In this document: one piece after another, positions 1 through 31,629 of the stretch
Position numbering within the stretch: the first letter of the stretch is position 1
How the letters are laid out: each line of letters begins with the position of its first letter
Origin: a virus
Direction: 5' to 3' (one strand)
DNA length: 64,000 nucleotides
Virus record (IMG/VR): IMGVR_UViG_3300037149_000105
Span: 83,411 to 147,410 of that record
Notes under the pieces: model-generated
Told to the model about the DNA's origin: nothing
Database searches by the model: none
The model's input: the letters and a program-made list of their open reading frames with translations, nothing else
Translations under genes and position numbers: made by a program

Positions 1-128
1 CTAAGGCAAGTCCTCGATCACAGTTGTCTGATACCTGTGCAGAGGTCACGAAGAAACAGACTAAGCGTGTGAATAAGGCACTTCAATAGATTTCTTGGAC
101 GGGGATTCGATTTCCCCCACCTCCTCCA
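1..128 (+). ncRNA. ssrA: tmRNA, 3' portion (5' part outside window)
   Basis: CTAAGCGTGTGAA segment followed by GGACGGGGATTCGATTTCCCCCACCTCC-TCCA, the T-arm/acceptor 3' end typical of tmRNA; no D or anticodon arm upstream. Confidence 0.75.
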
Positions 129-203
129 ATGAGTTCGATTCCTACTCTAACTAAGGAAATAGACTACCCAAATCTAAATTAAAGGTTTGACTCAGGAGTA
201 GAG

Positions 204-3978: not shown

Positions 3979-4050
3979 CTTCAAAGTTACCCCACCCTAT
4001 GGTGGGTATCCCTACTGCTTCCATGGTTCAGCATAGGGCACTCTTTGAAG
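3979..4050 (+). ncRNA. putative three-way-junction RNA
   Basis: CTTCAAAG/CTTTGAAG closing stem enclosing CCACC-CTAT-GGTGG and CCCTA..TGCT/AGCA-TAGGG hairpins. Confidence 0.4.
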
Positions 4051-4052
4051 TA

Positions 4053-4122
4053 GCATGGGGACTATAATCCCGGTGGTAAAGCCTCCACAAGGGGCCTGGA
4101 CGGTTCGACTCCGCCCCATGCG
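4053..4122 (+). ncRNA. tRNA-like RNA with non-canonical D and anticodon arms
   Basis: GCATGG/CCATGC terminal stem plus GGTTCGACTCC T arm; GCCTC-CACAA-GGGGC hairpin with 5-nt loop. Confidence 0.5.
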
Positions 4123-4128
4123 ATTAAT

Positions 4129-4218
4129 GGAAGTGTAAGCAAAGCAGGCAAGCTAGACTGTCTCGAAAACAGTTGGCCGATTTTCGGCCTAGGCGTTCGA
4201 CCCGCCTCACTTCCGCCA
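4129..4218 (+). tRNA. tRNA-Ser(CGA)
   Basis: GGAAGTG/CACTTCC-G-CCA; ACTGT-CTCGAAA-ACAGT; variable arm GGCCGA-TTT-TCGGCC. Confidence 0.9.
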
Positions 4219-4226
4219 TCATATTT

Positions 4227-4256
4227 GTGTGAGTCTTTAAAATAGACTAATGTCAA
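4227..4256 (+). repeat. 30-nt bulged-hairpin motif, copy 1 (degenerate)
   Basis: GTGT-GA-GTCTT-TAAAA-TAGAC-TAATG-TCAA. Confidence 0.6.
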
Positions 4257-4259
4257 ACT

Positions 4260-4335
4260 TGGACTGTAACTTCAGAGGCAGAAGGCTGCTTTTACACGGC
4301 AGAGGTCGAGATTTCGAAATTCTCCAGTCCAACCA
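4260..4335 (+). tRNA. tRNA-Val(TAC)
   Basis: TGGACTG/CAGTCCA-A-CCA; CTGCT-TTTACAC-GGCAG. Confidence 0.88.
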
Positions 4336-4480: not shown

Positions 4481-4580
4481 GGGGAGAACGAGATTAGCTC
4501 ATGGAGAGCATCGGTTCTTTAGGCGTAGGGGATACCCTCACCACCGTGTGAAACGTTCGATTCGACTTCTCAGACTCCCC
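4481..4580 (+). ncRNA. tRNA-like RNA with extended acceptor stem and expanded anticodon loop
   Basis: GGGGAG/CTCCCC outer stem; TAGCTCATGGAGAGCA D arm; CGGT/ACCG stem enclosing AGGG-GATA-CCCT; GTTCGATTC T loop. Confidence 0.5.
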
Positions 4581-4601: not shown

Positions 4602-4631
4602 GTGTGGGCCTACAAAATAGGCTAATGACAC
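4602..4631 (+). repeat. 30-nt bulged-hairpin motif, copy 3
   Basis: GTGT-GG-GCCTA-CAAAA-TAGGC-TAATG-ACAC. Confidence 0.75.
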
Positions 4632-4639
4632 GGTTAAGA

Positions 4640-6714: not shown

Positions 6715-6745
6715 CTATACAAACCCCTTCGAAACAGGGTATACT
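6715..6745 (+). promoter_or_regulatory. early-type promoter
   Basis: CTATACAAA...GGTATACT. Confidence 0.7.
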
Positions 6746-6785
6746 AGTTAGGTAGGGGACGAAGAGCCCTTCAAAGGAGAAACAC

Positions 6786-7154
6786 ATGGAAGGCAAGCGT
6801 TTCAGCATCAACGGAATCAAGGTCACGGCAACCCATCTGGGTGGGGGCCTCTATGTCGGCATCCCCGACAACCTGGGTGAAGCCCTCAAGGCCCTCAAGA
6901 CTCTCCTGAGTGGTGCACTGTTCGAGCCCCGTGACATCCAGCTTCTGCCCGATGAGCCCAAGGGCACCCCGCAGGGTCACTACACCGCCCCCAAGGCTCC
7001 CGCCGCCCCCAAGCCCGACTTCTCCAACGAGACGGTCCTGGAGCACTGCAAGCGCAAGGGCTACAGCCAGCGGGACTTCGCTGACCTGATCGGCAAGCAT
7101 CACAAGACCGTGTGGCGGTGGCAGCAGGAAGGCAAGAAGATGTCCGAGGTCTAA
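6786..7154 (+). CDS. protein with C-terminal Xre/Cro-type HTH
   Basis: GYSQRDFADLIGKHHKTVWRWQ; AAGGAG RBS. Confidence 0.8.
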   Translation: MEGKRFSINGIKVTATHLGGGLYVGIPDNLGEALKALKTLLSGALFEPRDIQLLPDEPKGTPQGHYTAPKAPAAPKPDFSNETVLEHCKRKGYSQRDFADLIGKHHKTVWRWQQEGKKMSEV

Positions 7155-7258
7155 CCGGCTGGAGTGCCGGGGAGCTTAGGAATGTCAGAGACCCCCGATA
7201 CGTAGATCCGGCAGAATGGGCTGAACGTAGTAGGTTGGCCCCTCCAGCGTCAACGCAT

Positions 7259-7276
7259 AGCCCCGAAAGGGGCTTT
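7259..7276 (+). terminator. hairpin, possible terminator
   Basis: AGCCCC-GAAA-GGGGCT-TT. Confidence 0.5.
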
Positions 7277-7294
7277 GGTGGTAGAGGGGGCTAT

Positions 7295-7537
7295 ATGAAG
7301 TTCACCACTGGTGGTCACTATGGCATAGAGGCTAAGGATCTGGAAGACAATACGGTGAGTGTCGTGGCCGAGGATGGCCGAGTGATGTTTGCAGTCATCT
7401 TGGGTGAGGATGGCCACTCCATCGAAGTCCGGAGTTCCGCAACCTGCAAGGTTGGGGGAGTCCTTTATGATTCGCGCCTCTTGGTTCAGCCCGAAGCATC
7501 CAATTCCATTTTCATCAAGGCTCGTTCCTATGAGTAA
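7295..7537 (+). CDS. hypothetical protein
   Basis: GAGGGGG RBS before ATG 7295; the longer ORF call from 7112 runs through structured intergenic DNA. Confidence 0.7.
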   Translation: MKFTTGGHYGIEAKDLEDNTVSVVAEDGRVMFAVILGEDGHSIEVRSSATCKVGGVLYDSRLLVQPEASNSIFIKARSYE

Positions 7538-7691
7538 ATGGAAATATTACAACTGCCCCCAATGCGGGGCCATCTTGGAGCGAAGATGCTGGGCTCCTCT
7601 GGGAGAGAAACGAGTTAGGTTTCTCTTCTGCCGTGAGTGCCGGGTCCGCTACACGACCAAGGACATGGTTCTTAATAAGGAGTTCAAATGA
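7530..7691 (+). CDS. small zinc-ribbon protein
   Basis: CPQC...CREC; overlapping start and stop with neighbours. Confidence 0.6.
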   Translation: MSKWKYYNCPQCGAILERRCWAPLGEKRVRFLFCRECRVRYTTKDMVLNKEFK

Positions 7692-7915
7692 GCAAACTGT
7701 GCGTTTTTTGTGAACATATGGAGTTCGATCACGAGGATGCTCATGGCGGAGGCTGTGAAACCTGCGGCTATGGGGCAGATGAGGGCCGAAACGATATGGT
7801 CTGTCAGAAGGGCCACTGGAAGACCGGAATTGAGTGGGGCCTGACCAGTTACCGTGAGAAAATCTGTGCCGCTGAAACCTGCACTGATTACGAACAGGCC
7901 GAGGACGAAGATTAG
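7688..7915 (+). CDS. small Cys-rich hypothetical protein
   Basis: AAGGAG RBS; CVFC, CETC. Confidence 0.75.
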   Translation: MSKLCVFCEHMEFDHEDAHGGGCETCGYGADEGRNDMVCQKGHWKTGIEWGLTSYREKICAAETCTDYEQAEDED

Positions 7916-7945
7916 CTATACAAACTCTCCGGTCTGAGGTATACT
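7916..7945 (+). promoter_or_regulatory. early-type promoter
   Basis: CTATACAAA...GGTATACT. Confidence 0.7.
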
Positions 7946-7983
7946 AATTGGGAAGGGGCCGAAACCCCACTGAGGAGAATCGC

Positions 7984-8253
7984 ATGGCTCTCGAACGTCA
8001 GGACATCCGTATCTCGAACCGGATATACCTTCTGCTCAACCCGGAGGATTCGGACACCCCGGCCCTGGTCCATACCAAGGACTGGAAGGCTTCGGCCACC
8101 TACACCTGTGTGATGGGTGAGGGAGTCCTCATGTCCAATCGAGATGAGGATGTGGAACTCACGCCCCAGGAACTGAAGACCCTTGACAAGTATGAGGATC
8201 TGGAATGCCAGTATAACGAGGAAGCTCGTAAGGACTGTCCTGAATACCAGTAG
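7984..8253 (+). CDS. hypothetical protein
   Basis: GAGGAG RBS, ATG 7984. Confidence 0.75.
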   Translation: MALERQDIRISNRIYLLLNPEDSDTPALVHTKDWKASATYTCVMGEGVLMSNRDEDVELTPQELKTLDKYEDLECQYNEEARKDCPEYQ

Positions 8254-8294
8254 CCCTCCATGAACGCAATTTCCATCCCACTGAGGAGAATCGC

Positions 8295-8618
8295 ATGGCC
8301 AAGAAAATCACTCTCGCAACGCTTAAGTCCTTTGTCAGAAAGAACCTCCCCGTTATGTTCATCTGCAAAAGAGCTAGTTTTGACGGGATGACGGACTGTG
8401 TGGAATACGACAGCAACGCGACTTTTCAACCGGCAAAAGAGGGCGCATCCTATCCTGAAAACACCTTAGGGATTGCGGGCGTCTGGCTGGTTGGAAGTTC
8501 ACGTGACCGTATTAGTCGCTATGAAGCCCCAGGCTGGGAAGGATTCGAAGTCTATAATTGCTGTGGGACGTTTGTGGTGGCGGTGAAGGTAGCCATCCCC
8601 ATGGAACCGAAACTGTAA
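8295..8618 (+). CDS. hypothetical phage protein
   Basis: GAGGAG RBS identical to that of the upstream gene. Confidence 0.8.
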   Translation: MAKKITLATLKSFVRKNLPVMFICKRASFDGMTDCVEYDSNATFQPAKEGASYPENTLGIAGVWLVGSSRDRISRYEAPGWEGFEVYNCCGTFVVAVKVAIPMEPKL

Positions 8619-8657
8619 TTCCCGCCCCTCTGAAGAGGGGCATTCTTTGGAGCCATC

Positions 8658-9050
8658 ATGTCCATAGCTAGCCAGTATCTCGCGTTCGAACTTTCAGGGG
8701 CTAGTCGTGTCTTTTTGTGGACGCAGTTCAAGCCGCACTTCAAGAAAGTGATGTGCCAGCACATTACCGTCCAGTTCAATCTGACCGAGGAGTCGGCTGT
8801 GCTGCTCCAGGAGCAACTGGCTAACGCTAACCTTCAGGTCGTAGGGTTCCAGATCGGAGACGGGGTGGAGTGTCTGGTGGTGGAGGTGAACGGTTCGTCT
8901 CGTCGTCCCGATGGGGGCTGCTACCACATCACCCTCAGTCTGGCCGATGGGCATAAGCCGGTCGAGTCCAACCAGCTTATCAAACAGCAGGGGTTCCAGA
9001 CTTGTGTCCCAGTCGGAATCGAGGCGGAGCTAAAACTCCTCAACAAATGA
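8658..9050 (+). CDS. 2H phosphoesterase (cyclic phosphodiesterase-like)
   Basis: two HxT motifs: QHITV and YHITL...KPVESN. Confidence 0.75.
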   Translation: MSIASQYLAFELSGASRVFLWTQFKPHFKKVMCQHITVQFNLTEESAVLLQEQLANANLQVVGFQIGDGVECLVVEVNGSSRRPDGGCYHITLSLADGHKPVESNQLIKQQGFQTCVPVGIEAELKLLNK

Positions 9051-9077
9051 GGCCATCACACAGTAATATGTATTATA

Positions 9078-9401
9078 ATGCCCAATCACTACGCCACTTC
9101 ATGGATGCCCCGAGAGGACTTGGTTATCTCCCTATCCGATGAGACTGCGGCGGAGCGGACTCAAGAGGAACGAGACCAAATGTTCCTAGAGCTTCGTGAG
9201 GTGGTGAAACAGCATGGCTTTGACCTCAACGCCTGGGGCTCTGATGCTTCGTTTAGAAAATATTATCAGGCACCATTGAAGAAAGAATGTGAAGGTTTCT
9301 TTGACGTATGGGACTCATACTGGCTGGCCAATACGTTGGGTGGCCCAACCTTCGACCAATTGAGCGAGGCAGCGGAGCGGATTCGCAAATTCATCATTTG
9401 A
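9078..9401 (+). CDS. hypothetical protein
   Basis: 107-aa ORF in gene run. Confidence 0.65.
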   Translation: MPNHYATSWMPREDLVISLSDETAAERTQEERDQMFLELREVVKQHGFDLNAWGSDASFRKYYQAPLKKECEGFFDVWDSYWLANTLGGPTFDQLSEAAERIRKFII

Positions 9402-9426
9402 CATCTTCCCTGAAATTTGATATGCT
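9398..9426 (+). promoter_or_regulatory. sigma70-type promoter
   Basis: TTGACA-N17-TATGCT. Confidence 0.7.
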
Positions 9427-9438
9427 GTAAGGGAGGAT

Positions 9439-9849
9439 GTGATGATAAAACTCACTGGCAAGCTTCATTACGACCACACTCCCGAGTACGGATATCGGCT
9501 CGTGCTGGAAATCTGCCCCGGTATTCCCATGTTCTACCGGTGGCTCATCCCCAAGTGGTATCAAGTGAATGGACTGAGGGCCAAGGCTCACATCACCGTG
9601 ATCCGGAGGGAGAAGCCTGCTAACCTTAAGGCATGGGGTAAGTATGAAGGGGAGGTTGTGGAGTATGAGTATGATCCTGAGTCTCTTCAGACTGATGGCA
9701 AGCTGTACTGGTGGTTAAACTGTTTCAGCCACCGGCTCGAAGCGGTTGCTGAGGAGTTGGGTATGCCCTTTGTCAACTACATCAAACCCGCCGAAGGTTA
9801 CCGGAAGGTTTGGCACACCACTGTAGCAAACATGAAACAAACGAATTAA
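9439..9849 (+). CDS. second 2H phosphoesterase
   Basis: AHITV and WHTTV HxT motifs; GGGAGG RBS. Confidence 0.7.
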   Translation: MMIKLTGKLHYDHTPEYGYRLVLEICPGIPMFYRWLIPKWYQVNGLRAKAHITVIRREKPANLKAWGKYEGEVVEYEYDPESLQTDGKLYWWLNCFSHRLEAVAEELGMPFVNYIKPAEGYRKVWHTTVANMKQTN

Positions 9850-9854
9850 TTTCT

Positions 9855-9885
9855 ATATACAAATCTGACCGAAAGTGGGTATACT
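9855..9885 (+). promoter_or_regulatory. early-type promoter
   Basis: ATATACAAA...GGTATACT. Confidence 0.7.
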
Positions 9886-9903
9886 AGTCTAAAGGAGTCA
9901 CAT

Positions 9904-10032
9904 ATGAACCGTCTCGTTCGTCTCGCCCTTCGCGCACAGCGGAATCTTCGCAATCCCCTGGTCTGGTATGTGGCCGGGATGGTTGACCTGACCCTCATCC
10001 TGCTGGTCTGCAACCACTTCAAGTGGATCTGA
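9904..10032 (+). CDS. 42-aa basic/membrane peptide (not in ORF track)
   Basis: AAGGAG RBS; MNRLVRLALRAQRNLRNPLVWYVAGMVDLTLILLVCNHFKWI; own promoter and terminator. Confidence 0.65.
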   Translation: MNRLVRLALRAQRNLRNPLVWYVAGMVDLTLILLVCNHFKWI

Positions 10033-10047
10033 TACACAGAAAAGAAA

Positions 10048-10075
10048 TGAAACGCCTCCGAACGGGGGCGTTTCA
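10048..10075 (+). terminator. intrinsic terminator
   Basis: TGAAACGCCTCC-GAAC-GGGGGCGTTTCA. Confidence 0.6.
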
Positions 10076-10103
10076 AGTATTAGCTAGTAAAGGAGTAGTT
10101 CAA

Positions 10104-10829
10104 ATGAAAGAAGGATACACTCACATCTCTGCCATTATCGACCGTTCAGGTTCGATGTTCGGCATCAAAACCGATACCGAGGGCGGGTATAACACCTTCC
10201 TGAAGGATCAGAAAGAACTGCCAGGGGAGGCTACGATCAGCCTCACTACATTTGACGACCGGATTGAACTCGAATACGGAATGATCGCCATCAAGGATGC
10301 CCCCGCCTTCACCCTCCAGCCCCATGGTATGACTGCCATGCTGGATGCCATTGGTGTGACCATCAAGAACCTGGGAGCCAAGCTGGCAGCCATGGATGAA
10401 GCCGACCGTCCCGAGAAGGTTCTGGTTGTGATTCTCACTGATGGCGAGGAGAACAGCAGCAAGGAATACACCTATCAGACCATCAAGGCCATGATCACCG
10501 AACAAACCGAAGTTTACTCCTGGGAGTTCCTGTTCCTAGGAGCCAACCAGGATGCGGTTCTGGCCGGGAGTCAGATTGGCATCTCCGCTGGCAAGAGCAT
10601 GAGCTATGCGGCCAACGGAGCCAGTGTGGGCAACACTTTCACAACCATATCCAAATCCAGTTCTGCTTATCGGATGTCGGCCCGAGGGGTCGCTGCCCCT
10701 GATTTCACCAATCAGGATCGCGCTGATTCCATGATTCTGGATCCGAGTGCAGCAACCAGTGTTTCGGCTGGGGTTCCTAACGTTCAGACGTTCAACCCAC
10801 CTCCGGTTCCCCCAGCAGATCCTAAGTAA
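10104..10829 (+). CDS. von Willebrand factor A (MIDAS) domain protein
   Basis: IIDRSGSM, TAMLDA, ILTDGEENSS; AAGGAG RBS before ATG 10104. Confidence 0.9.
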   Translation: MKEGYTHISAIIDRSGSMFGIKTDTEGGYNTFLKDQKELPGEATISLTTFDDRIELEYGMIAIKDAPAFTLQPHGMTAMLDAIGVTIKNLGAKLAAMDEADRPEKVLVVILTDGEENSSKEYTYQTIKAMITEQTEVYSWEFLFLGANQDAVLAGSQIGISAGKSMSYAANGASVGNTFTTISKSSSAYRMSARGVAAPDFTNQDRADSMILDPSAATSVSAGVPNVQTFNPPPVPPADPK

Positions 10830-10853
10830 GCTCAGCGACTAGCCGCTTCTAAT

Positions 10854-10883
10854 GTGTGAACCTACAAAATAGGCTAATGACAC
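10854..10883 (+). repeat. 30-nt bulged-hairpin motif, copy 4 (abuts RBS)
   Basis: GTGT-GA-ACCTA-CAAAA-TAGGC-TAATG-ACAC then GGGAGG. Confidence 0.75.
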
Positions 10884-10896
10884 GGGAGGAGCCATA

Positions 10897-11370
10897 ATGT
10901 CCATCTTAACCGAGTGGGTCTCTACCCTAGAAGCCACCACTTATCCCTGGACTGATCAGTATTTACATACGCCTAATGGGTTCGACCCATTAGGCGTTTT
11001 GTGTGAAATGTATCGTCTCACGTTCTCCGCTCAGCCGATTCAGGATCAACCAACTTGGGTTTTGGGCCCTACTGGCACCTTTTACATCTTCACCGATCCT
11101 GGGGCTACTGACGGCATCAGCAACAAGCTCCCTGAGTCGGTTCAGCGATGGGCTGATTTGTTGGAAGCGGATCCAATCATGGTTCTGACCGATAGCAATG
11201 TAGACATTGGCTATCCGGTCTACATCCCTCTGAATGAAGTGGTGGATGGATTGGTTCTGAAGGTGGATACCACCATCCCCCCGGTTTTCGGGGTGCAGCA
11301 GCGGCCTTATTCAAATACTGAAATTATAGCTCTTATCGCTGCATTCGTCGCTTCCTACAATCCTGATTAA
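10897..11370 (+). CDS. hypothetical protein
   Basis: GGAGG RBS; 157 aa. Confidence 0.8.
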   Translation: MSILTEWVSTLEATTYPWTDQYLHTPNGFDPLGVLCEMYRLTFSAQPIQDQPTWVLGPTGTFYIFTDPGATDGISNKLPESVQRWADLLEADPIMVLTDSNVDIGYPVYIPLNEVVDGLVLKVDTTIPPVFGVQQRPYSNTEIIALIAAFVASYNPD

Positions 11371-11424
11371 ACTTTTTTGAAAAAAGACTAACCAAAAATC
11401 AAAACTCGCGGTATTATCTCTAGG

Positions 11425-11474
11425 TAGACGCTAACAGCAATCTCATCCCCTGTAACGGAACGAAACTGCGTCTA
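11425..11474 (+). promoter_or_regulatory. CAGCAA-stem RNA element in 5' leader of the DUF2828-like gene
   Basis: TAGACGC-TAACAGCAATC...CTGTAAC...AAACT-GCGTCTA immediately after a GGTATTAT -10 box. Confidence 0.55.
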
Positions 11475-11529
11475 GTGTTTTTGTCTCATGGCCGTGCCAT
11501 GAGTGGATTGAAACAAATAGGAGATCGTC

Positions 11530-12966: not shown

Positions 12967-12972
12967 TGTTTT

Positions 12973-13012
12973 ATGGTTCCCGCTTCTGTTCGAGGAGTGG
13001 GAACCATTTTTT
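12973..13012 (+). terminator. intrinsic terminator
   Basis: 15-bp stem followed by T tract. Confidence 0.8.
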
Positions 13013-13047
13013 AAAGCAATAACAAGTGTTTACGCCCAGGAGCTACA

Positions 13048-13290
13048 ATGGCTAAGTCACAGTTCAAACCGATGCCGATGCCGGTCTTTAATTGTGCTCC
13101 GAATTGGGGTACAGAGCAAGATATCGCTGCCTGGGGTCTGCACGGCTGGGATTTGGCAGAAAAGCTGGCAAGCAAACTTACGCCGGAGCAGTTAAGCGAG
13201 TTTGATTTTAAACCAAGGGATGACATCTCTAAGCGGGTAAGGCACCTCCTAGGTCTGGAGAATTTTACCATCCCCACTGGTTACAACTGA
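13048..13290 (+). CDS. hypothetical protein
   Basis: AGGAG RBS. Confidence 0.7.
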   Translation: MAKSQFKPMPMPVFNCAPNWGTEQDIAAWGLHGWDLAEKLASKLTPEQLSEFDFKPRDDISKRVRHLLGLENFTIPTGYN

Positions 13291-13332
13291 TGCTCAGTAT
13301 CACCTGGACCCCGTGAACCATCTGGAGGAACC

Positions 13333-13515
13333 ATGAGGAATTTCAAAACCGACCGAATCGAAACCGACTATCGGCACTATGTCGATCTGGTGAACGAGCG
13401 GGATGCGCTCAAGGATGCCATGGAGAAGATTGCCAGTGGAGTCCTCACCGCAGAGGGAGCCATTGACGTTGCCCAGGAAGCCCTCGCCGCTGGTCCCAAG
13501 AATCCCTACGAATAG
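13333..13515 (+). CDS. hypothetical protein
   Basis: GGAGG RBS. Confidence 0.7.
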   Translation: MRNFKTDRIETDYRHYVDLVNERDALKDAMEKIASGVLTAEGAIDVAQEALAAGPKNPYE

Positions 13516-13563
13516 CACCTGTCCAAGATGTCCAGGATCACCTGGACCCCCAAGGAGAACGAC

Positions 13564-14118: not shown

Positions 14119-14198
14119 CACCTATCCAGTTAATGGTGAGCAAGTGGGGCTTAAGTAGGGATTACTACATCCGCTCGCTTGACTTATAGGAATTCTAA

Positions 14199-14330
14199 AC
14201 CGCACCTGTCCAAACCCATAAGCAGGCCCGGCAGGATGGGCTCAACCGGGTCGCAGAACTGGAGGCGGAACTCGCCCGATACACCACTCCGGCAATCCTG
14301 CCGATCGATAACTCGCCCATCGCGGGCTGA
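14199..14330 (+). pseudogene. start-less gene remnant
   Basis: frame reads ...GLNRVAELEAELARYTT.. to TGA, but is preceded by in-frame TAA with no start. Confidence 0.3.
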
Positions 14331-14399
14331 TGTCCAGATGCATGGCGTAAAGTGTCTAGTGTGGGGCATCGACAAAGATCCAACCGTTCTGGAGAAGAC

Positions 14400-14803: not shown

Positions 14804-14809
14804 ATTTCT

Positions 14810-20318: not shown

Positions 20319-21650
20319 TTAAGGCTTGAGTATTGCGGTTTCGCTCAGTTTTTGTGAATGCTTGATATGGAACTCAAAATTATAGCCAGCCTGTTTGACT
20401 GCTTGTGCTTTGGCGTGGTTCATAGCCAAAGTTTTTTGATAAGTGTACACTGATTTTACCTCAATGATTAGGTTCTTGGATTTAATAAAAATGTCAGGGT
20501 AATACCTACGTAATTTTCCTTTGAATTCATAGAAGAAACTAGGGCAGTCAATTCCGGTTAAAATATCAGCTTCTGAAGTGCCCGAATCTAACAACTCTTG
20601 AATAACTAAAGGCTCGTATCCTTGGACTTGGATAGTCTTTCCAGAAGGAAAAGTGAACGTCTTACGAGCATAACCTAACTTTAATCTGGAGTGAAAGAAT
20701 ATGGGAGACTGAAGCGGGTAAGGCACTCCATACTTGTTAATATTTGTTACCTCTCCTTTTGCACGAATCTCTGCCGATTGATAAGGGGCGGTAACTCCAT
20801 AACGAGCCACACAAGTCAAAGCTCGCTTAGCTTCGCATTCCGGATTTTGGCGGGGATGTTCATACCCCGTCTTTATTCTCTGACCTTCTTTCCATTTTTT
20901 ATTTTTTGCGTAGTGTCCCCCATAACGAGCATTTATTGTCTCCTGAATACGCCTACCCATCCCAGGAATTTGAAATACGTTGTCCACTCCAAACATTTTT
21001 TGGAGCACAGCTTTTCTTTTTTCATACCCAGATTTTAAGGATCCATGCCTGCTAATTTCAGTCTCCTGTTTTTTAGCTACAAACTCAGGAAGACTAATGG
21101 GATTAGCCACTCCATAGCGGTTAAGACAGGTTTGCTCTCTTTTCTCAATGAAAGAGTGATCCTGTGTATGGTGCTCCACGCCGTACCGTTCCAATGAAGT
21201 TTTTCTTCTCTCTTCTTCAGAATGAGCACACTTAGCCGGACACTTCTTGTAATGATCTGAACAACACCAATACCAATGAAGAACCTGCCCCGTATTTGTC
21301 TTGACCGATTTCATCAGATGAAACTTAGCCAGAGATCCACAGCCATTTTCGCATAGTTGGCCCTCAGAGGGCAACTCAGCACTCCTCCTTGCTTGCCGCT
21401 CCTTCTGCCCTTTGGCATGTCTTTCCTTTTGAATTTTCGCTCTGGTTTCCAAATCCATAATAGAGACTGCATGGGCTGTAGTATTTTTTGATTGCATAAG
21501 TCTGTAACCTAGACATTCCCTAGCCTTTTGATGACAACAGTACAACCTTTTAGCAGCATGGTAGTAATTTCCAGCACCGCCACACAGATAGCAGCTACCC
21601 ACTTGTTCAGCCGTGACCTCAACAAATTTAAAATAGTTTGAATTTGGTAT
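20319..21650 (-). CDS. homing-endonuclease-like protein (RYGV repeats plus PD-(D/E)xK domain)
   Basis: repeated T...RYGV; YYPDIFIKSKNLIIEVKS; frame open from ATA 21650 behind AAGGAG. Confidence 0.8.
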   Translation of the reverse strand: MPNSNYFKFVEVTAEQVGSCYLCGGAGNYYHAAKRLYCCHQKARECLGYRLMQSKNTTAHAVSIMDLETRAKIQKERHAKGQKERQARRSAELPSEGQLCENGCGSLAKFHLMKSVKTNTGQVLHWYWCCSDHYKKCPAKCAHSEEERRKTSLERYGVEHHTQDHSFIEKREQTCLNRYGVANPISLPEFVAKKQETEISRHGSLKSGYEKRKAVLQKMFGVDNVFQIPGMGRRIQETINARYGGHYAKNKKWKEGQRIKTGYEHPRQNPECEAKRALTCVARYGVTAPYQSAEIRAKGEVTNINKYGVPYPLQSPIFFHSRLKLGYARKTFTFPSGKTIQVQGYEPLVIQELLDSGTSEADILTGIDCPSFFYEFKGKLRRYYPDIFIKSKNLIIEVKSVYTYQKTLAMNHAKAQAVKQAGYNFEFHIKHSQKLSETAILKP

Positions 21651-25062: not shown

Positions 25063-28000
25063 TTACGTTGTTCTGATAAGACGTTTCTGCCTTACTGGAG
25101 TGGGATAGACGTTTAGCTCATCCTCTATTTCGTGAAGACGGTCGTCAATCTGGTTCCACCGTTCCACGAGTTTCTCGTACTCCTCTGACCATTTTATAGA
25201 GTCCCCCTCCTGAGCATTTTCTTCTAGGGCTTGGTCTACCACTTGCTGCTCTTTGGTTAGCTGTTCCTTTTCATCCATCAGAGGGGCAAACTCAGTCTCT
25301 TTTTCGTCAAACAACAGCCCCTGAGCCGCATCCATTTTCTCAACATGGAGGTCCATATCAGGATATAGCTTTTGGAGATACTTGAGCATCTCGTGACCCA
25401 CATACTCTCTTGGATCCACAGCTTTGCGTAACCGCTCGGACATCAGTTTCCTGGCCTCTAGAGTAGTCAGAGCTTGGTTTCCAATGTCGATGCTATCAAT
25501 CCACGGGTAGCCCTCATAGATGGAATAACGAATCTCTCCCACACAGAATCTTCCGTTGAGGGCGAACAGTGTGAAGTAATCCTGGGCAAACCGGCGGTGG
25601 TGGTGCTCATGTTTGAACGTCAACGCTCCAATCTTTATCAGCAAAGAGGAGTTTATTTTGCTCGCAGTTGTTCGGGAAGCTCCGCCTCCAATTCCGGTGG
25701 GAGTAATGCCCCCGGCTTGTGATCCGGGTATGCCATCCCCAGATACGCCTCTCTTGTAAGAGGAATCTTGTGAGTCTGCATGAAGCATAGGATCGGATCC
25801 GACCCAGCTTGGGGTTTCGAAGACGTTTTTTCCGCCCCTTCGTTCTTTGATAACAGCGGTGATTTTTTCCCTAGCTTGTTCGGCATTGAGCCCTCCATCT
25901 TCTGGATCGTGTGAGGCCCAGATCTCATTTGCAATACGGATGAACTTCTTGTCTCGCTTGTCCGCAGGGCTGAAAAGTGCCCTCACGGCCTCCCAGGTGA
26001 TTGACTGGAGTTCGCGGGGTAGGATGCCCACCGCAGGGTCTTTCGCGGCTCTACGGTATGCCTCAGCGTAAAGAGCATAGAGTCCGTTCAGACCTGTGAT
26101 TGAACTATTACTCGGACCTGGAATCTTCTCCATATCGGGGTCACCCTCGACATATTCGCCCTCATCATCATCCCATACCCACACCTTGCCATTTTTGTCT
26201 TTCTTAGGGTTGAAACCGGTGCCAAAGTTATGAGCGACTTCTACCGCCGCACCACTCAGCGGGCGAATCAGTGCCGCCGCAACCGCATGGGTATCAATCG
26301 TTACATCACCCTCATCAGCCATTGGGGCGATAAGATTGTTGTAGAATGACCGCACCTTATGATTCGTTCCAACCAATTTAGATACATCACTGACCGATTC
26401 TGATTCAAGGATTCGGACAGCCTTGGAGATGGCGGCGAAGCTGTTCCAGCGAACCTTAGCATTCTGTTTCCCAGTTTTGAACCAATCTCCAAAATTCCCT
26501 TCCGGAGTGACTTCACGAAGCTTGTTATCCGTATGTCCTTCGGCCCAAGCCCTGATCCATACGGAAGCCAAATACTCTCGACCTGATTCAGGGGTATTTT
26601 CTGTTAGCACTTCGTTGAGAGTTTTACCACGAAGCAGAGGAATGGCCAACGCTGTAGACCACTTCAGCTTGGGCTCCTTGGTTTTCTTGGGTTTCCTGGC
26701 ACTTTCCTTTTTCTTCTTGCCACCCTCCTCTGACTCTCCGGCCCTAACCGCTTCCTTCATGTCATCTTCCAGGTCATCCGGGGTCCAGTTGCGATGCAGG
26801 GCCACCCGATCCATCTTCCAATCCCAGCGGAAGTCTTTCAACTCTACCAACGCTTCAATGATACGTTCTGCGGTGGTGACGTTCTGGAACCAGTGAGCCT
26901 GGGGGGACATCGCCGCCACCACAGCCGCCACCTTGTGTGGCTCCAGATGGAACTTCTCCGCCCACCTGTGAATGATGCGATTGCCTCCCACGTACCATAA
27001 TTTAGCCCTATCCGCTAGGGATTTATCCCAAGTCTTATACAGCCAGATGAGGTTTGCAGCCATGTGGTTGATGATCTCTTCAGCCTTTTCATGAGCATCA
27101 AACTTCTGGAAACGGCCCTCTCGCATATATTTAAAGTTGGGGTAGTTATCTACCGCTAGGTTGACATTATACTCAAACTTCTCATTCTCCATCATCTTCT
27201 GAAGGTCCGGTTGGCTAGTAGCGTGACTGTGGGGGTCAACCTCACCGGGCTTCAGCACACTGCTTTGGGCGGCTGGACTGATGCGCCTATCCGCCAGTGA
27301 CTTGGCTAAGTCCTCTTCCTCTTGAGTCGGAGGAGTAACCTTTTCAGCGTTTGGTGTCTCCTCATTCACCATCCCCTCCACGGGGTCTACGTTTAACCCA
27401 CCACCTTCGGTTCGGGGCTTCACTGAAGCGGTAAGCAAAGGGCTGGAGGGGTTGAATGTCCCCTTGTTTCCTATGGCTGATTTTACTTGACGGGGATTCC
27501 ATACGATGTAATGGCGAGTGCCAGGGGCCATTCTCATGTTTAGAAATTGAGCACTCGCATCCATGATAATCCCATCGAACCCCATGTAGCGGTAGATAGC
27601 AGAGATAAGAGCGCCTGCACCTCCTTGAGCACCCGCACTTTCATCATTTCCTCTTACAGCTTTTTCAAATTCATAAGCAGAGCAGCCCTCTAACAACTTC
27701 TCCACCAATTCTTCCCATATGCGGTCTGCTCGTATGTCTGACTCTGAGCAAGCAGCCTGTACCGCCTCATAGAGTTTGGTAACTTCAGGGCCATCTACCC
27801 ACTCATCTTCATTCTCCGGGTCAGGGCCACCATCCCCACCCAAGTAGGTTCCGCCTTTTGGTGTTACGATGACTGGGTTTTCCATTTTCAAGTAAGTGAG
27901 GTAGACGGCCCCCTGATGAGTCCCACCTAACATTTCCCATGCTTTTTTCTTGGCAAGCTCTCGGATAGCTTTGGGGTTGTCTTCGTGCTCTTCCCCCATC

Positions 28001-31000
28001 TCTTCTTCCCAATCTCCCCCATCACTCATCAAGTCTTCTGCAACCTCATCAATTTTTCCAGCCAAATCTCGGCAATTGATATCTGCATACTGACTCGCAT
28101 CCACTTCACAATCGGTAAAATATATCCCCTTGCTATACCAGCCATCCGTGTATGCGTTACTCATAGAGAATTGGTCAAATTCATTGGTGGTTCCGTGCAT
28201 GACTCGTTTTGGGGTTCCGTCCTTATTGACAACTTTGGAATCACCGAACCACGCCTTAAATTGCGGAGTCTCATGCGGCTTGGGTCTTTTTGCAAGTTCT
28301 CTTCCAATTTGTTGAGCGGCTTCATTTACAGCCTGCTGGGCCGACATCGCTTTCTTGACCCTTCCGATTTTTGAGATAGCCCCAACCAGCCGCTCTGTAG
28401 CTTCATTGCGGCTCGTCACACCGGTCATATCGGTGTTCTTGATTGCCGCCGCACAACTCAGCAGGTAGGATTTGGACTCCTGGTTAGCCCCATAGAGCGC
28501 ACAGTCCAACAACTGGGAGAAGTCAAACGCCCCCCTGGACCCAGACTGAATGATGTTTACTACCGCATCTTTTGGCAAAGACTTGGCTTGCCGGATATTT
28601 TCCCGGTTCTTTTTAACAAACTGAGCCGCTTGTTTGATTTGGTTGGACAGGCCCAGCCGGTTGTTCAGACTATCCGGAACGGGAAGCAGAGACTCAATCC
28701 CCACCATCTGCATATCAAAATCCCAACCATTCTGATGACCATAATTGACTGATTTAGCTATACTGTCCCAATTCTGCTCGAATTCACTAAACCAGGGTTC
28801 TAGGCACCCACCCTCACGTAGCACTTCAAAGAACCGCATCGGAACCTTGCCGACAAGCGCACGTTTGGTCTCTTCTCGGATACGATCAGCCGGGAGGTAT
28901 TGTAGTTCTGGCTGCATCCGCCGCATCATTTCTACCAGTTGGGGGCTCACCTTCCACTCAGACCCAAATTGGGCACTGAAACGAGCCGCCCTATATACCC
29001 TTAATGCATCCTCAGCAAACTTCTCACTGACGTTCTGGAGGGTCTTATCCTTGATATTTTGCAGTGCTTCAGGAGGTCCGAACAGCTTGCCGTCCGCATC
29101 CACCGACATGGCGTTCACGTTTAGGTCCCGGCGAACCATGTCGTCTTCGAAGTTGCCGGTTGGAGTAACATCAAAATCTTTGTGACCCACCCCATTTTTT
29201 TCTTCGGAACGGGCCACCGCGATTTCAATTTGGCCATAGGTTGGATCTTGGTAAAGGTAGACAGGGAAAGCCTTCCCCACATTCTCCAGACCCATTTGCT
29301 GCAACGTTTCTGCCGTTGTGTTGGTAACCACATCAAAGTCCTTTGGCTTACGGTCAAGTAGCATGTCTCTGACGCAACCACCAACAAAACGGAAGTCAGC
29401 CCTGGGGTCAAACATGTAAGCCATCTGCTTGAGCTTCTTCAGCATATATAGGGGTAGCTTGACCTCCTGGTCATGAGGAAGCTGAACCATCGCAGCCTGC
29501 TTGGAGGCAACTGTCATCCCCTGGTACCGCCAGACTTCACCTGGGTTCTTCATGTTTAGAAGCTCCCCAATTGGAATCCCTGCGTATTTTCTGCCACCTT
29601 CGTATTGCTCAATGTAAACCTCATCCTTCATTTGGGTCAAGTCAGACTCCTCCAGTCCACTCTCATTAAATACCCAATCGATGATGGTGTCAAGATTTCT
29701 TGGAGTGAGTCGCCACACTTCAAAGTTTTTGTCTACAACCCGGATTTGGTTGTAAAATCGCATGAAGAACTCTCGGACTTCGTTCTTGAACATGTCATAC
29801 TCGCCATTAAAAATGGCATCACACTCTTCCAGAGACACATAACCCCAGATGAGGGTAAAGAACACATCTTCCACTGGAAAGTCAGGCTCCCCATACTTCA
29901 TCGCATGGAGCTTTCGCCACTCTTCCTCCACCTCTCCTGGGTTGTTGTCATCTTCTTCTTCGTGGGCCTCATGAAGATGACGCTGACAAGCACTAAGAAT
30001 TTGGTCCCACTTGTCATTGAGAATCTGTTCTCTGGCATAGGTTTCGTGGGTATAGTCCCCGTCTCCACTGCATTCTGCATAGTTGTTCGCTGAGTCGCCA
30101 TCTACCCAGTATTCACCATTGATGAAACTACCCCACCCTGCGGCAAGTTTGCTGCTGTAGTGTTGTCGGGCCACCTCTTCATCAAGTCCGTAGTCTACCA
30201 AGACCGGATACCGCTCACCCCTACGTTCGACCAGCCCCCACTGGCTCTCTCGATCAATGTCCCACCATTTAACACCAAGTGTCTGGCATAAGAACTGAAG
30301 AGATTTCACTGCCTGCCTATCTGTAAGAAATTCTGTTCCCCCACGCTCTACTTTTTTACAAAAGTTGTAGGCGTTGGTTGCTCCATATCGTTCGAAATCT
30401 GAATAGGTGGCCCCTCTTAGGACTCGCTCAACTACGAGCCAGTGAAACTCAGTATCATAGTAAAAAATGCGAGTGATAATAGTGCAATCCTCAACCTTCT
30501 CATACATTCTGAGTTCGGCTTTGTTCTGAGCCACACCGGGCTGATTGATCGCTAGCTTGATTGCAACATGTTCATTTACCCCGACGACCATACGGGAAGA
30601 CCCTTCCCCTAAAACTGGAAGCTCCATTCCGGTTCGCTCTCTCAGGAGCTTTAAGCGATCCCTGACGGTCTGAGAGTAGCCATTAGGCTCCTCCCAATTG
30701 TTATCCCCCTCCCCTTCATCCTGACCTTCTGGTGATATTTCGTGAATGCCGGGAAGTTTTTTGAGCAGATCCTTTGGGATATTTTTAGGCTTCTCTTCAG
30801 CCACTTTGACTTGATCGGCGTCCTGTTCCCCAAAGATGTCAATCAATGCAGTTAAAAGTTCCCTAGGTACTTCAGAGCCATCGGCCCATTTGGTCAGTCC
30901 CTTATTGGTTACACGACTAACGCCTCGTGGAAGCCCATTGCGGTCGTATAGGATGACGAACAAAGGGCCTGGGGTGCTCTTGTAGATGGTCTGCTTGTAG

Positions 31001-31629
31001 CGGTCGATTATCTTACGAGCGTCATTTAATTCCTGTTTATCTCGTTTCTGCACTGGTTTGCCCAGGTCCACCATCATACGCTTATTTGTGTCCGGTGCTC
31101 TCCAAACAGATTTGGAGATGCCCTCTTCCCGTCCTGCATGACGTTCTAAGAACTCTTCATCACTGACGTTATCATCATAAAGCCTGCTCCATGCACCAGA
31201 GTCTTCACTGGCCGTCTTCTGATTGACAATTCGCTCATGAACTATATCGTAGAATTGCTGGCTCAAAGGGAACAGGATTTCATAACCGTACATCAATTCA
31301 GTTCCGTAGAAGTCGATCTCGGTCTGCTTGATAGCCTGCATCATCGCCTTGATGACCCCCGCATCCTCTCCGAACTCAGTCTCGGATAAGAAAGCCTTGA
31401 TTTGTTCTAGGATAAGTGCAGTCCCTTCATGAAATACAATCTGGGTGTGTCCTGGGTTGTCCAAAGGGATAGGGAGTTCTAGCATGAATACTGAAAATCG
31501 AGGAATACCCAAGTCAATCAGCCACTGGATTCGGGGCCGCTCATCTCGGATGAAATAGATATTAATGACACCCTGCTCAGGTAGGACAAATGCTCTCTTC
31601 ATGCTCACACTCTCAATATTGATACCCAT
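25063..31629 (-). CDS. polyvalent protein: kinase-like + CCA-adding tRNA nucleotidyltransferase + ART-like + HhH-like + GNAT-like modules
   Basis: GEGSSR/VAIK/LVDYG; VGGCVRD..KDFD, RRDLNVNAM, EDALRVYRAARF; FKAWFGDSK..MHGT..GIYFT..GFDGII..QVKSA; WY..SPQ..KVRSFY..VTIDTH..LQSITW. Confidence 0.88.
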   Translation of the reverse strand: MGINIESVSMKRAFVLPEQGVINIYFIRDERPRIQWLIDLGIPRFSVFMLELPIPLDNPGHTQIVFHEGTALILEQIKAFLSETEFGEDAGVIKAMMQAIKQTEIDFYGTELMYGYEILFPLSQQFYDIVHERIVNQKTASEDSGAWSRLYDDNVSDEEFLERHAGREEGISKSVWRAPDTNKRMMVDLGKPVQKRDKQELNDARKIIDRYKQTIYKSTPGPLFVILYDRNGLPRGVSRVTNKGLTKWADGSEVPRELLTALIDIFGEQDADQVKVAEEKPKNIPKDLLKKLPGIHEISPEGQDEGEGDNNWEEPNGYSQTVRDRLKLLRERTGMELPVLGEGSSRMVVGVNEHVAIKLAINQPGVAQNKAELRMYEKVEDCTIITRIFYYDTEFHWLVVERVLRGATYSDFERYGATNAYNFCKKVERGGTEFLTDRQAVKSLQFLCQTLGVKWWDIDRESQWGLVERRGERYPVLVDYGLDEEVARQHYSSKLAAGWGSFINGEYWVDGDSANNYAECSGDGDYTHETYAREQILNDKWDQILSACQRHLHEAHEEEDDNNPGEVEEEWRKLHAMKYGEPDFPVEDVFFTLIWGYVSLEECDAIFNGEYDMFKNEVREFFMRFYNQIRVVDKNFEVWRLTPRNLDTIIDWVFNESGLEESDLTQMKDEVYIEQYEGGRKYAGIPIGELLNMKNPGEVWRYQGMTVASKQAAMVQLPHDQEVKLPLYMLKKLKQMAYMFDPRADFRFVGGCVRDMLLDRKPKDFDVVTNTTAETLQQMGLENVGKAFPVYLYQDPTYGQIEIAVARSEEKNGVGHKDFDVTPTGNFEDDMVRRDLNVNAMSVDADGKLFGPPEALQNIKDKTLQNVSEKFAEDALRVYRAARFSAQFGSEWKVSPQLVEMMRRMQPELQYLPADRIREETKRALVGKVPMRFFEVLREGGCLEPWFSEFEQNWDSIAKSVNYGHQNGWDFDMQMVGIESLLPVPDSLNNRLGLSNQIKQAAQFVKKNRENIRQAKSLPKDAVVNIIQSGSRGAFDFSQLLDCALYGANQESKSYLLSCAAAIKNTDMTGVTSRNEATERLVGAISKIGRVKKAMSAQQAVNEAAQQIGRELAKRPKPHETPQFKAWFGDSKVVNKDGTPKRVMHGTTNEFDQFSMSNAYTDGWYSKGIYFTDCEVDASQYADINCRDLAGKIDEVAEDLMSDGGDWEEEMGEEHEDNPKAIRELAKKKAWEMLGGTHQGAVYLTYLKMENPVIVTPKGGTYLGGDGGPDPENEDEWVDGPEVTKLYEAVQAACSESDIRADRIWEELVEKLLEGCSAYEFEKAVRGNDESAGAQGGAGALISAIYRYMGFDGIIMDASAQFLNMRMAPGTRHYIVWNPRQVKSAIGNKGTFNPSSPLLTASVKPRTEGGGLNVDPVEGMVNEETPNAEKVTPPTQEEEDLAKSLADRRISPAAQSSVLKPGEVDPHSHATSQPDLQKMMENEKFEYNVNLAVDNYPNFKYMREGRFQKFDAHEKAEEIINHMAANLIWLYKTWDKSLADRAKLWYVGGNRIIHRWAEKFHLEPHKVAAVVAAMSPQAHWFQNVTTAERIIEALVELKDFRWDWKMDRVALHRNWTPDDLEDDMKEAVRAGESEEGGKKKKESARKPKKTKEPKLKWSTALAIPLLRGKTLNEVLTENTPESGREYLASVWIRAWAEGHTDNKLREVTPEGNFGDWFKTGKQNAKVRWNSFAAISKAVRILESESVSDVSKLVGTNHKVRSFYNNLIAPMADEGDVTIDTHAVAAALIRPLSGAAVEVAHNFGTGFNPKKDKNGKVWVWDDDEGEYVEGDPDMEKIPGPSNSSITGLNGLYALYAEAYRRAAKDPAVGILPRELQSITWEAVRALFSPADKRDKKFIRIANEIWASHDPEDGGLNAEQAREKITAVIKERRGGKNVFETPSWVGSDPMLHADSQDSSYKRGVSGDGIPGSQAGGITPTGIGGGASRTTASKINSSLLIKIGALTFKHEHHHRRFAQDYFTLFALNGRFCVGEIRYSIYEGYPWIDSIDIGNQALTTLEARKLMSERLRKAVDPREYVGHEMLKYLQKLYPDMDLHVEKMDAAQGLLFDEKETEFAPLMDEKEQLTKEQQVVDQALEENAQEGDSIKWSEEYEKLVERWNQIDDRLHEIEDELNVYPTPVRQKRLIRTT

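Follow-up and report, generated by a model that had tools for sequence, protein, structure and literature searches.

Positions 1–31629 of a 64,000-nucleotide window of viral DNA carry the tail of a tRNA gene island, two minimal 2H-fold phosphoesterases, a TROVE-like von Willebrand factor A (vWA) protein accompanied by small structured RNAs, and a CCA-adding module within a giant polyvalent protein. We consider it fairly probable that this region protects phage translation by combining a tRNA supply with a kit for mending RNA ends, joined to a separate block of late genes. The clustering of RNA genes goes beyond chance and is matched by conserved neighborhoods in other phages. An earlier note, made from the sequence alone, had described the whole stretch as one integrated system that heals and replaces tRNAs attacked by host defenses. 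Treating 1–31629 as a single unit is not supported, as the stretch comprises three differently organized modules on two strands: the terminal part of the tRNA island, a pair of accessory operons, and a late module on the opposite strand. The heal-and-replace idea itself stands in part. Ligase and kinase genes were found and the neighborhoods recur, but the parts do not form one unit and the 2H enzymes could equally degrade signaling nucleotides of host defenses.

Cleavage of tRNAs and modification of their ends are widespread last-line defenses of bacteria, and to our knowledge T4 and T5 are the only large phages whose escape from tRNA-targeting defenses has been worked out in detail. In the reading we favor, host defense nucleases would cut or trim tRNAs and the phage would provide fresh ones from its 17 tRNA genes and transfer-messenger RNA (tmRNA). 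The 2H enzymes, together with metallophosphoesterases, would open or remove 2′,3′-cyclic or terminal phosphates, an AAA_33 kinase would phosphorylate 5′ ends, and a DraRnl-type ligase would reseal breaks. The CCA module would rebuild trimmed 3′ ends and mature those phage tRNAs that lack an encoded CCA. Finally, the Ro60-like protein and its "handle" RNAs, which carry anticodon-arm or tRNA-like inserts, may serve as an RNA-binding scaffold or decoy.

The window is the terminal 64 kb of a 147,410-bp IMG/VR virus contig with a CheckV completeness of ~51%. Because half of the genome is missing, the absence of a gene from the contig is weak evidence. A megablast search with 20 kb of query found no close relative in the GenBank phage collection. 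Coordinates are window positions unless marked as genome positions; in locus L007, which is part of the same contig, position 7393 corresponds to genome position 77393.

tRNA genes, 2H enzymes, and their neighborhoods

An ARAGORN scan of the whole contig placed the tRNA island at genome 77315–87745, with 17 tRNAs and a tmRNA that straddles the start of the window. Eleven of these tRNAs lie upstream of the window, and the window tRNAs form the tail of the island. The tmRNA reported in the earlier note is real, but only its 3′ third (128 nt, positions 1–128, + strand) falls within the window, where it matches Rfam RF00023 with 41.8 bits and is truncated at the 5′ end. The complete gene (genome 83135–83538) begins 275 nt before the window and scores 95.9 bits against a gathering score of 47; ARAGORN predicts a tag peptide ending in VA.

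All six tRNAs assigned to the window were recovered on the + strand, five by ARAGORN and the sixth by Rfam. These are tRNA-Arg(CCG) at 872–948 (Rfam 58.3 bits, CCA encoded), tRNA-Leu(UAA) at 2082–2167, tRNA-Ser(UGA) at 2831–2918, tRNA-Thr(UGU) at 2920–2993, tRNA-Ser(CGA) at 4129–4218, and tRNA-Val(UAC) at 4260–4335, the last scoring 45.7 bits in Rfam and called by ARAGORN at a relaxed threshold only. The atypical pairs described earlier are also present. The A-U and U.U pairs closing the T stems of tRNA-Arg and tRNA-Val, respectively, can be read straight off the sequences, and Infernal marks the C31.A39 mismatch in the anticodon stem of tRNA-Thr, which has a further mismatch at U6.C67. As claimed, tRNA-Leu lacks an encoded CCA, with CAGG following its discriminator A; CCA is likewise missing from the upstream tRNA-Cys(GCA) and is present on all other tRNAs and the tmRNA.

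Several additional tRNA-related features were observed. An 18th tRNA, a second tRNA-Pro, with anticodon UGG, lies at 63224–63312 (− strand), far from the island and near the contig end. Immediately 3′ of the island tRNA-Pro, a tRNA-like gene at genome 77393–77468 (Rfam tRNA, 52.7 bits) has, according to ARAGORN, an 8-nt anticodon loop with the four-base anticodon "aaaa" and may represent a tRNA of the frameshift-suppressor type or one that is aberrant in another way. A match to the wcaG RNA between tRNA-Gln and the tmRNA (L007:12484–12584) is below threshold (30.9 bits versus a gathering score of 42). Relaxed ARAGORN calls beyond the island were discarded as noise, as shuffled sequence yields ~11 such calls per 19 kb.

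The two 2H phosphoesterases proposed in the earlier note are borne out by H-x-T motifs, AlphaFold (AF2) models, and structural matches. The first, 2Ha (8658–9050, + strand), is a minimal enzyme of 130 aa, and the second, 2Hb (9439–9849, + strand), has 136 aa. Neither protein has a Pfam match, both belong to PHROGs without an assigned function, and searches of PDB sequences with 2Ha, 2Hb, and a profile returned nothing. No six-frame match to Pfam 2_5_RNA_ligase2 or 2H-SAK was found in the genome, and one homologue of 2Hb bears PF22547 (2H-SAK). Across 29 homologues, H35-I-T37 and H90-I-T92 of 2Ha are invariant; in 2Hb, again with 29 homologues, the invariant residues are H51 and H126, and T128 is conserved in at least 90%.

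The AF2 models of 2Ha and 2Hb have predicted local distance difference test (pLDDT) scores of 94.8 and 93.7, respectively. The best Foldseek matches of 2Ha in the PDB are nearly all 2H enzymes, including the Trl1 kinase-cyclic phosphodiesterase (CPD), CNPase, a 2′-5′ ligase, and VP3, with probabilities of 0.97–1.0 and TMq up to 0.65. Foldseek gave nothing significant for the 2Hb model. With the exhaustive VIA-align search, the first 21 rows for 2Hb are all 2H enzymes (Z 4.0–5.9; CNPase, Acb1, CPDase, MHV ns2, 2′-5′ ligases, Usb1, AKAP18, and VP3), and the next match has a Z of 3.1. Because these Z values are modest, the fold assignment depends on how exclusive the matches are, taken together with the motifs. 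The two proteins share no detectable sequence likeness and represent two separate minimal 2H families. Judged by models and motifs, 2Ha and 2Hb are members of the 2H phosphoesterase superfamily with predicted cyclic phosphodiesterase activity.

We examined the neighborhoods of these genes in 15 TROVE, 28 2Hb, and 70 2Ha loci from IMG/VR, which were collapsed to 9, 17, and 48 lineages, respectively (<90% identity); neighboring open reading frames (ORFs) were clustered, and recurrent clusters were annotated. The earlier note had looked to co-occurrence across related phages, and such co-occurrence is seen: the 2H families occur by CCA genes and near Rnl1, PNK-HD, and RlaP, and the TROVE-like gene occurs at tRNA arrays. 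In four lineages, among which 2Ha identity is only 36–65%, the distance between 2Ha and a stand-alone CCA gene is 41–205 bp; for 2Hb, such a gene is 252–285 bp away in three lineages. Two lineages have Rnl1 directly next to 2Ha. One or more of CCA, Rnl1, PNK-HD, and RlaP can be found within 5 kb of 2Ha in 15 of 48 lineages, of 2Hb in 5 of 17, and of TROVE in 2 of 9. At a distance of up to 500 bp, tRNA genes accompany TROVE in 4 of 9 lineages and 2Hb in 3 of 17, but 2Ha in 0 of 48 (TROVE, 4/9, versus 2H anchors, 3/65; Fisher p = 0.003). In one relative, L011, a single strand encodes within 13 kb Rnl1, three handle RNAs, TROVE, and a CCA gene (370 aa) that stands alone; Rnl1 is 1.6 kb upstream of TROVE and the CCA gene 7.4 kb downstream.

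By analogy, the recurring 2H–CCA pairs suggest that the 2H enzyme would clear the 2′,3′-cyclic phosphate at a trimmed acceptor end and the CCA enzyme would then rebuild that end. The repeated pairing of two compact 2H families with CCA genes thus suggests a dedicated tRNA 3′-end repair route, comparable to that afforded by the HD domain in Escherichia coli.

The main rival explanation, which we regard as somewhat unlikely, is that the minimal 2H enzymes are anti-signaling nucleases that would act, like Acb1, on cyclic oligonucleotides, 2′-5′ oligoadenylates, or ADPr>p, their nearness to the tRNA island being incidental. Acb1 is also a small phage 2H-fold enzyme, close in size to 2Ha and 2Hb (130–136 aa), and its structure (7t27) ties for the best structural match of 2Hb at Z 5.9; a poxvirus cGAMP phosphodiesterase and a Burkholderia phage phosphodiesterase are matched as well. 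An anti-signaling role has been proposed for solo phage 2H domains (Iyer 2017; PMC5512222). Elsewhere, the neighbors of 2Ha include Macro (seven lineages) and NMNAT-Nudix (five lineages) genes of NAD/ADP-ribose (ADPr) metabolism. However, the resemblance to Acb1 amounts to 12% identity with no sequence-level match, and the structural scores fail to separate Acb1 from CPDases or 2′-5′ ligases. Moreover, 2H genes adjoin CCA-adding genes in seven lineages and Rnl1 in two, and 2Hb sits within tRNA arrays in three; these neighborhoods point to tRNA, CCA, and ligase genes and not to anti-signaling genes.

Returning to the repair reading, the earlier note saw no RNA ligase in its window and pointed to RtcB, Rnl, or Pnk elsewhere in the genome. 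The wider search uncovered a DraRnl-type ligase, an AAA_33 kinase, and two metallophosphoesterases, but not RtcB. The DraRnl-type (Rnl5) RNA ligase is encoded at genome 53294–54517, scores 247 bits against the 151-bit cutoff of the TIGR02306 equivalog, and consists of an N-terminal OB domain (PHA02142) and a C-terminal RNA_ligase domain. Its gene is located in the replication module, beside an HNH gene and a TnpB-like gene. The AAA_33 P-loop kinase (genome 75044–75481) lies ~1.8 kb before the tRNA island, accompanied by the two metallophosphoesterases, which are of the calcineurin type. Searches for RtcB, T4 Rnl1, RlaP, KptA, SmpB, and Pth found none of these in the contig. The putative BECR RNase of the earlier note was likewise not recovered, with no Pfam match to BECR or PBECR at E ≤ 0.01–0.05 in the scanned ORFs of 1–37718, polyvalent segments included and a few ORFs of <90 aa excepted.

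A few kilobases before the island, a 408-aa protein (genome 70180–71406) combines an N-terminal DUF6036 nucleotidyltransferase with a RelA/SpoT-type HD_4 domain. This protein might undo alarmone-type or tRNA-end pyrophosphate modifications.

A TROVE-like protein and its neighboring RNAs

The TROVE-like vWA protein was correctly singled out from the sequence. This 478-aa protein (11530–12966, + strand) contains the Pfam domains DUF2828 (113 bits) and DUF7788 (173 bits) and a metal ion-dependent adhesion site (MIDAS) of sequence DVSGS, of which D283-x-S285-x-S287 is invariant in the alignment. It belongs to phrog_850, annotated as "RNA-binding protein" (E = 7e-144). Pfam TROVE (PF05731) is not assigned to the protein. 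When its own families are excluded, every one of the nearest named clusters in the protein atlas is TROVE + vWA_Ro60 (scores 0.91–0.93), and we take the kinship with Ro60/TROVE that these neighbors indicate as a lead only. Searches of the PDB with phmmer and with a profile built from 11 homologues both failed to reach Ro60, and a literature search for "DUF2828" retrieved no functional paper.

The tRNA mimics mentioned in the earlier note correspond to two RNAs (1012–1109 and 11425–11474) formed by a closing helix and the motif CAGCAA, plus a marginal tRNA-like remnant at 4030–4123; the fold z-score of this remnant, like that of the tRNA-like candidate at 4488–4575, is unremarkable. The contig contains four of these handle RNAs; every one is on the + strand, within either the tRNA island or the TROVE region. 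Each consists of a 5′ strand (U/A)AGACnn, two to three nucleotides, CAGCAA, an insert that varies, and a 3′ strand that matches the 5′ strand perfectly. A U run follows three of the four, and the helix varies among copies with compensating changes. The third copy (1012–1109, + strand) is closed by the helix UAGACAUGU / ACGUGUCUA and followed by a U run; one of its U.G pairs is a C-G pair in the relative L012. The cargo of this copy includes a 6-bp stem with a 7-nt loop, CUGUAAA, that resembles a Tyr anticodon loop. The fourth copy (11425–11474, + strand; helix UAGACGC / GCGUCUA) is located 56 nt 5′ of the TROVE-like gene and is kept in relatives L009, L010, and L012.

The association of handle RNAs with TROVE-like genes extends to distant loci, in which the proteins share 34–59% identity. 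There, 23 handle RNAs occur within 700 nt upstream of the gene and on its strand, in seven of nine lineages. Only 0.43 would be expected from the background rate in 0.8 Mb of other phage loci (Poisson P = 7e-32). Many of the inserts consist of a 7-nt loop reading C-U-N-N-N-A-A on a stem of 4–6 bp, or of T arms and whole tRNA-like bodies. Rfam YrlA was not found beside TROVE in four loci and does not match the handle RNAs. A Y RNA candidate was rejected, as the sole YrlA match was below threshold and overlapped two tRNAs upstream. Based on their adjacency and conserved stem, the handle RNAs are the predicted partner RNAs of the TROVE-like protein. The locus would then comprise a Ro60-like protein together with partner RNAs that present anticodon arms and seem to form a family not described before.

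The operon that includes the TROVE-like gene begins with a gene for a 268-aa vWA-like protein (10023–10829, + strand; phrog_7371, E = 4e-64) with a MIDAS-type DRSGS motif; only the close relatives L009 and L012 keep this gene together with TROVE. A strong intrinsic terminator with a 15-bp stem and a T run (12973–13007, + strand; fold z-score −4.5) ends the operon. Between the fourth handle RNA and the TROVE-like gene lies a hairpin ending in GGATTGAAAC (11483–11514, + strand) that resembles a type I-C CRISPR repeat and stands 15 nt 5′ of the start codon. In L010 and L012, a second CAGCAA-handle RNA takes the place of this hairpin. The PUA/ASCH-like protein suggested earlier corresponds to a small RNA-binding protein of 91 aa (14528–14803, + strand) that matches phrog_986, "RNA-binding protein", with E = 3.5e-32. 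Its gene is a variable accessory and is missing between TROVE and a 398-aa gene in L010 and L012.

A CCA-adding module within a polyvalent protein

The CCA-adding module named in the earlier note is intact and occupies residues 725–1090 (28360–29457, − strand) of a 2188-aa polyvalent protein (25063–31629, − strand) in which Pfam recognizes a PolyA_pol head with its RNA-binding part, ART-PolyVal, and DUF7178. From the N-terminus, the protein consists of an unassigned region, a kinase-like part, the CCA module, ART-PolyVal, DUF7178, and an unassigned C-terminal region; homologues P0059–P0065 have the same domain set, with PolyA_pol, its RNA-binding part, ART-PolyVal, and DUF7178 kept together in P0059–P0063. 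The kinase-like part (residues ~330–490; 30160–30642, − strand) has a GxGxxS...VAIK-type motif and no Pfam match, and its protein-atlas neighbors, the Phage_T7_kinase, YrbL-PhoP_reg, and APH clusters, are leads only. The ADP-ribosyltransferase (ART) domain ART-PolyVal spans residues ~1135–1392 (27454–28227, − strand; PF18760, E = 1.8e-16), and its C-terminal half was also matched in the Pfam scan of polyvalent segments.

Within the module, motifs A (GGCVRD...DFD), B (RRD), and D (EDALR) are intact at residues ~750–880. The module matches CCA-adding enzyme and poly(A) polymerase (PAP) chains in the PDB with E = 2e-15, and human TRNT1 aligns with it up to residue 1015. Among NCBIfam models, those for CCA enzymes score 173 (PRK10885), 143 (PRK13298), and 114 bits, versus 75 and 56 bits for PcnB; these scores fall under the curated whole-protein cutoffs because only the head and neck align. 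The HD half is missing, as the PRK10885 profile is matched at positions 5–215 of 409 only. Residues 725–1090 and P0067, a homologue of 378 aa, align over their full lengths (53% identity over 366 aa), suggesting that the module is a whole small CCA enzyme. The 75 aa at its C-terminus match nothing known. By motifs and profiles, the module is a class II CCA-adding enzyme for which CCA addition is the predicted activity. Of 26,234 homologues among 1.8 billion representative proteins, only about six clusters at 50% identity place the module in proteins of >1300 aa. In most of these, the module is N-terminal (CCA-ART-DUF7178), whereas ~720 residues precede it here.

The polyvalent gene belongs to a long co-directional block with weak baseplate matches, giant ORFs with Ig-like domains, and lysozymes. 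Baseplate_J scores 20.5 bits against a cutoff of 21.1, the baseplate PHROG match is weak, and PHROGs are otherwise uninformative for this block. Three giant ORFs of 1717, 2267, and 1277 aa lie at 41339–57199 (− strand); the first two contain He_PIG Ig-like domains and are probably fibers or adhesins. Genes for SLT lytic transglycosylases follow at 58770–59246 (+ strand) and 59533–60198 (− strand). Another 2188-aa ORF, at genome 14486–21052 (− strand), contains internal repeats. A concatemer was suspected from the two ORFs of equal length, but an offset comparison and BLAST showed that they are unrelated and that the match in length is coincidental.

Published work gives location among virion genes as a rule for phage polyvalent proteins (PMC5512222). 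Because the fused protein lies in the late-gene block, its packaging into the virion and delivery are probable, and by this analogy the polyvalent protein is probably injected at infection. A CCA enzyme in an injected protein would make repair available at time zero. The word "CCA" is absent from the text of the polyvalent-protein survey (PMC5512222), and a CCA enzyme that is virion-borne or polyvalent did not turn up in our literature searches. Like the proteins in that survey (Iyer et al. 2017, J Bacteriol), the one described here is a giant multidomain product of late genes with ART-PolyVal and a truncated kinase-like domain; unlike them, it has no MPTase, PBECR, or MuF domain that we could find.

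A more far-reaching version, in which virion-delivered tRNA 3′-end repair and a decoy form a pre-emptive three-layer answer (decoy, replace, repair) to tRNA-targeting immunity, seems unlikely to us. The packed CCA-ART-kinase-like fusion would rebuild acceptor ends before any phage gene is expressed, and the 2H enzymes would clear 3′ ends blocked by cyclic phosphates. The ART domain might act like Tpt1/KptA on the resulting 2′-phosphate. The Ro60-like protein and anticodon-arm handle RNAs would serve as a decoy or sensor for anticodon nucleases.

It is also conceivable, though quite improbable in our estimation, that there is no system at all. The stretch would then be a mosaic early/accessory region, and the polyvalent protein would be an independent injected effector whose CCA-type transferase attacks or reprograms host RNA, for example by decay-triggering tailing. 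At least three HNH genes and one DUF7487 endonuclease-like gene interrupt the region, gene content varies among close relatives, and the presence of separate promoters, a terminator, and a polyvalent gene on the opposite strand fits such a mosaic. The best single PDB match of the CCA module is the E. coli poly(A) polymerase, and polyvalent proteins have been described as bundles of offensive early effectors (PMC5512222). However, the lead of the CCA models over PcnB (173 versus 75 bits) and the intact templating motif EDxxR argue for CCA addition. In addition, a stand-alone version of the module occurs near TROVE and Rnl1 in L011, and neighborhoods conserved over deep divergence speak against pure accident.

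Gene organization and comparison with known systems

Several observations weigh against a protective tRNA-supply and RNA-mending kit. The proposed parts are distributed over separate operons on both strands, up to 60 kb apart, with HNH endonucleases and unrelated genes intervening, and the ASCH gene and its neighbors are dispensable in that close relatives lack them. No repair hallmark lies within 5 kb in 33 of the 48 2Ha lineages, and the commonest 2Ha neighbors belong to nucleotide metabolism (deoxyribonucleotidase, metallophosphoesterase, ribonucleotide reductase, and topoisomerase). In structure, 2Hb resembles the anti-CBASS nuclease Acb1 (Z 5.9) as closely as it resembles CPDases. DraRnl-type ligases seal nicks in duplexes; given this activity and its location in the replication module, the ligase may instead serve DNA/RNA-primer metabolism. 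A HAD-type 3′-phosphatase, KptA, RtcB, and RlaP were not found in the ~51% complete contig. Virion packaging of the polyvalent protein leans on weak baseplate matches and analogy, and the placement of the CCA module in this late-block protein means that the setting in which it acts may differ.

The block 2Ha-x-2Hb-vWA-x-TROVE is preserved in close relatives only. A promoter-like motif, TATACA-N17/18-TATACT (repeat family D2), occurs in four copies on the + strand at 6716, 7917, 9856, and 14811 (span 6716–14840), and copies sit at the head of the operons that carry 2Ha/2Hb and vWA/TROVE. A 32-nt element (GTGTG..CCTACAAAATAGGCTAATGACAC..) with an inner hairpin occurs three times, always between genes, at 4227–4258, 4602–4633, and 10854–10885. 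One copy lies between tRNA-Ser and tRNA-Val and one 3′ of the vWA gene, and the element could be a processing or regulatory site.

Other features of the region were also noted. An identical 23-nt sequence, CCCACTGAGGAGAATCGCATGGC, at 7966–7988 and 8277–8299 includes an ATG preceded in both copies by a Shine-Dalgarno-like GAGGAG, and the second ATG is the start codon of an ORF at 8295–8618; the pair looks like a duplicated translation-initiation region. Within an ORF at 13528–14118, ~11 overlapping copies of a 12-nt tandem repeat (13842–14063) encode an Ala/Arg/Asp-rich four-residue repeat in a 196-aa protein without an assigned function. The DUF7487 gene, which is homing-endonuclease-like (20319–21602, − strand), lies within the late-gene block and has no counterpart at this place in L012, in which its two neighbors directly adjoin each other. 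The contig end (genome 146934–147410) is made up of tandem repeats with a period of ~78 nt.

Kits for tRNA supply and RNA mending have been described in jumbo phages (PMC7824862, PMC9503650), so that our framing is largely established biology (Iyer 2021). Jumbo phages combine tRNAs, RNA ligases, 2H enzymes, TROVE, and CCA enzymes in presumed repair kits (Iyer, Anantharaman, Krishnan, Burroughs, and Aravind 2021, Viruses; PMC7824862). The present genome resembles these sets in its tRNAs, ATP-dependent RNA ligase, kinase, phosphoesterases including 2H, ROT/TROVE protein, and CCA enzyme, and in the presumed role of countering host attack on tRNA. It differs in that the ligase is of the DraRnl type (TIGR02306) and not Rnl1, Rnl2, or RtcB, there are two minimal 2H families without a Pfam match, the CCA enzyme forms part of a polyvalent protein, and the TROVE-like protein is a DUF2828 protein with handle RNAs. 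The polyvalent CCA fusion, the 2H–CCA pairing, and the handle RNAs look new. If any of these three leads is true, it would provide a new counter-defense mechanism and new RNA-end-processing enzymes.

The T4 enzymes Pnkp and Rnl1, which restore PrrC-cut tRNA-Lys, follow the same heal-and-seal logic, with a 5′ kinase, removal of 2′,3′ phosphates, and an ATP-dependent ligase. Unlike in T4, neither a HAD-type phosphatase nor Rnl1 was found in this contig, and the kinase and phosphoesterases are separate small genes. A second parallel is offered by Ro60 (Rsr) and its Y RNAs (YrlA/YrlB), which are located beside the rtcBA RNA-repair genes in bacteria and also occur in some mycobacteriophages. The likeness includes a TROVE-like, putatively ring-shaped protein with a vWA/MIDAS domain, flanked near RNA-repair genes by small RNAs that have a conserved stem, the "handle", and tRNA-like parts. 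In contrast, the protein described here is DUF2828/DUF7788 in Pfam and is not matched to solved Ro60 by hidden Markov models, and its RNAs are not Rfam YrlA but carry a motif of their own, CAGCAA, which follows the 5′ helix strand.

The HD domain of the E. coli CCA-adding and repair enzyme supplies 2′,3′-cyclic phosphodiesterase and phosphatase activity. This half is missing here, and a separate 2H enzyme would perform the phosphodiesterase step. The E. coli-type model PRK10885 is the best NCBIfam match of the module across its head and neck (173 bits), and a two-step scheme, in which a blocked 3′ end is first cleared and CCA is then added back, fits the 2H–CCA gene pairs seen in seven phage lineages.

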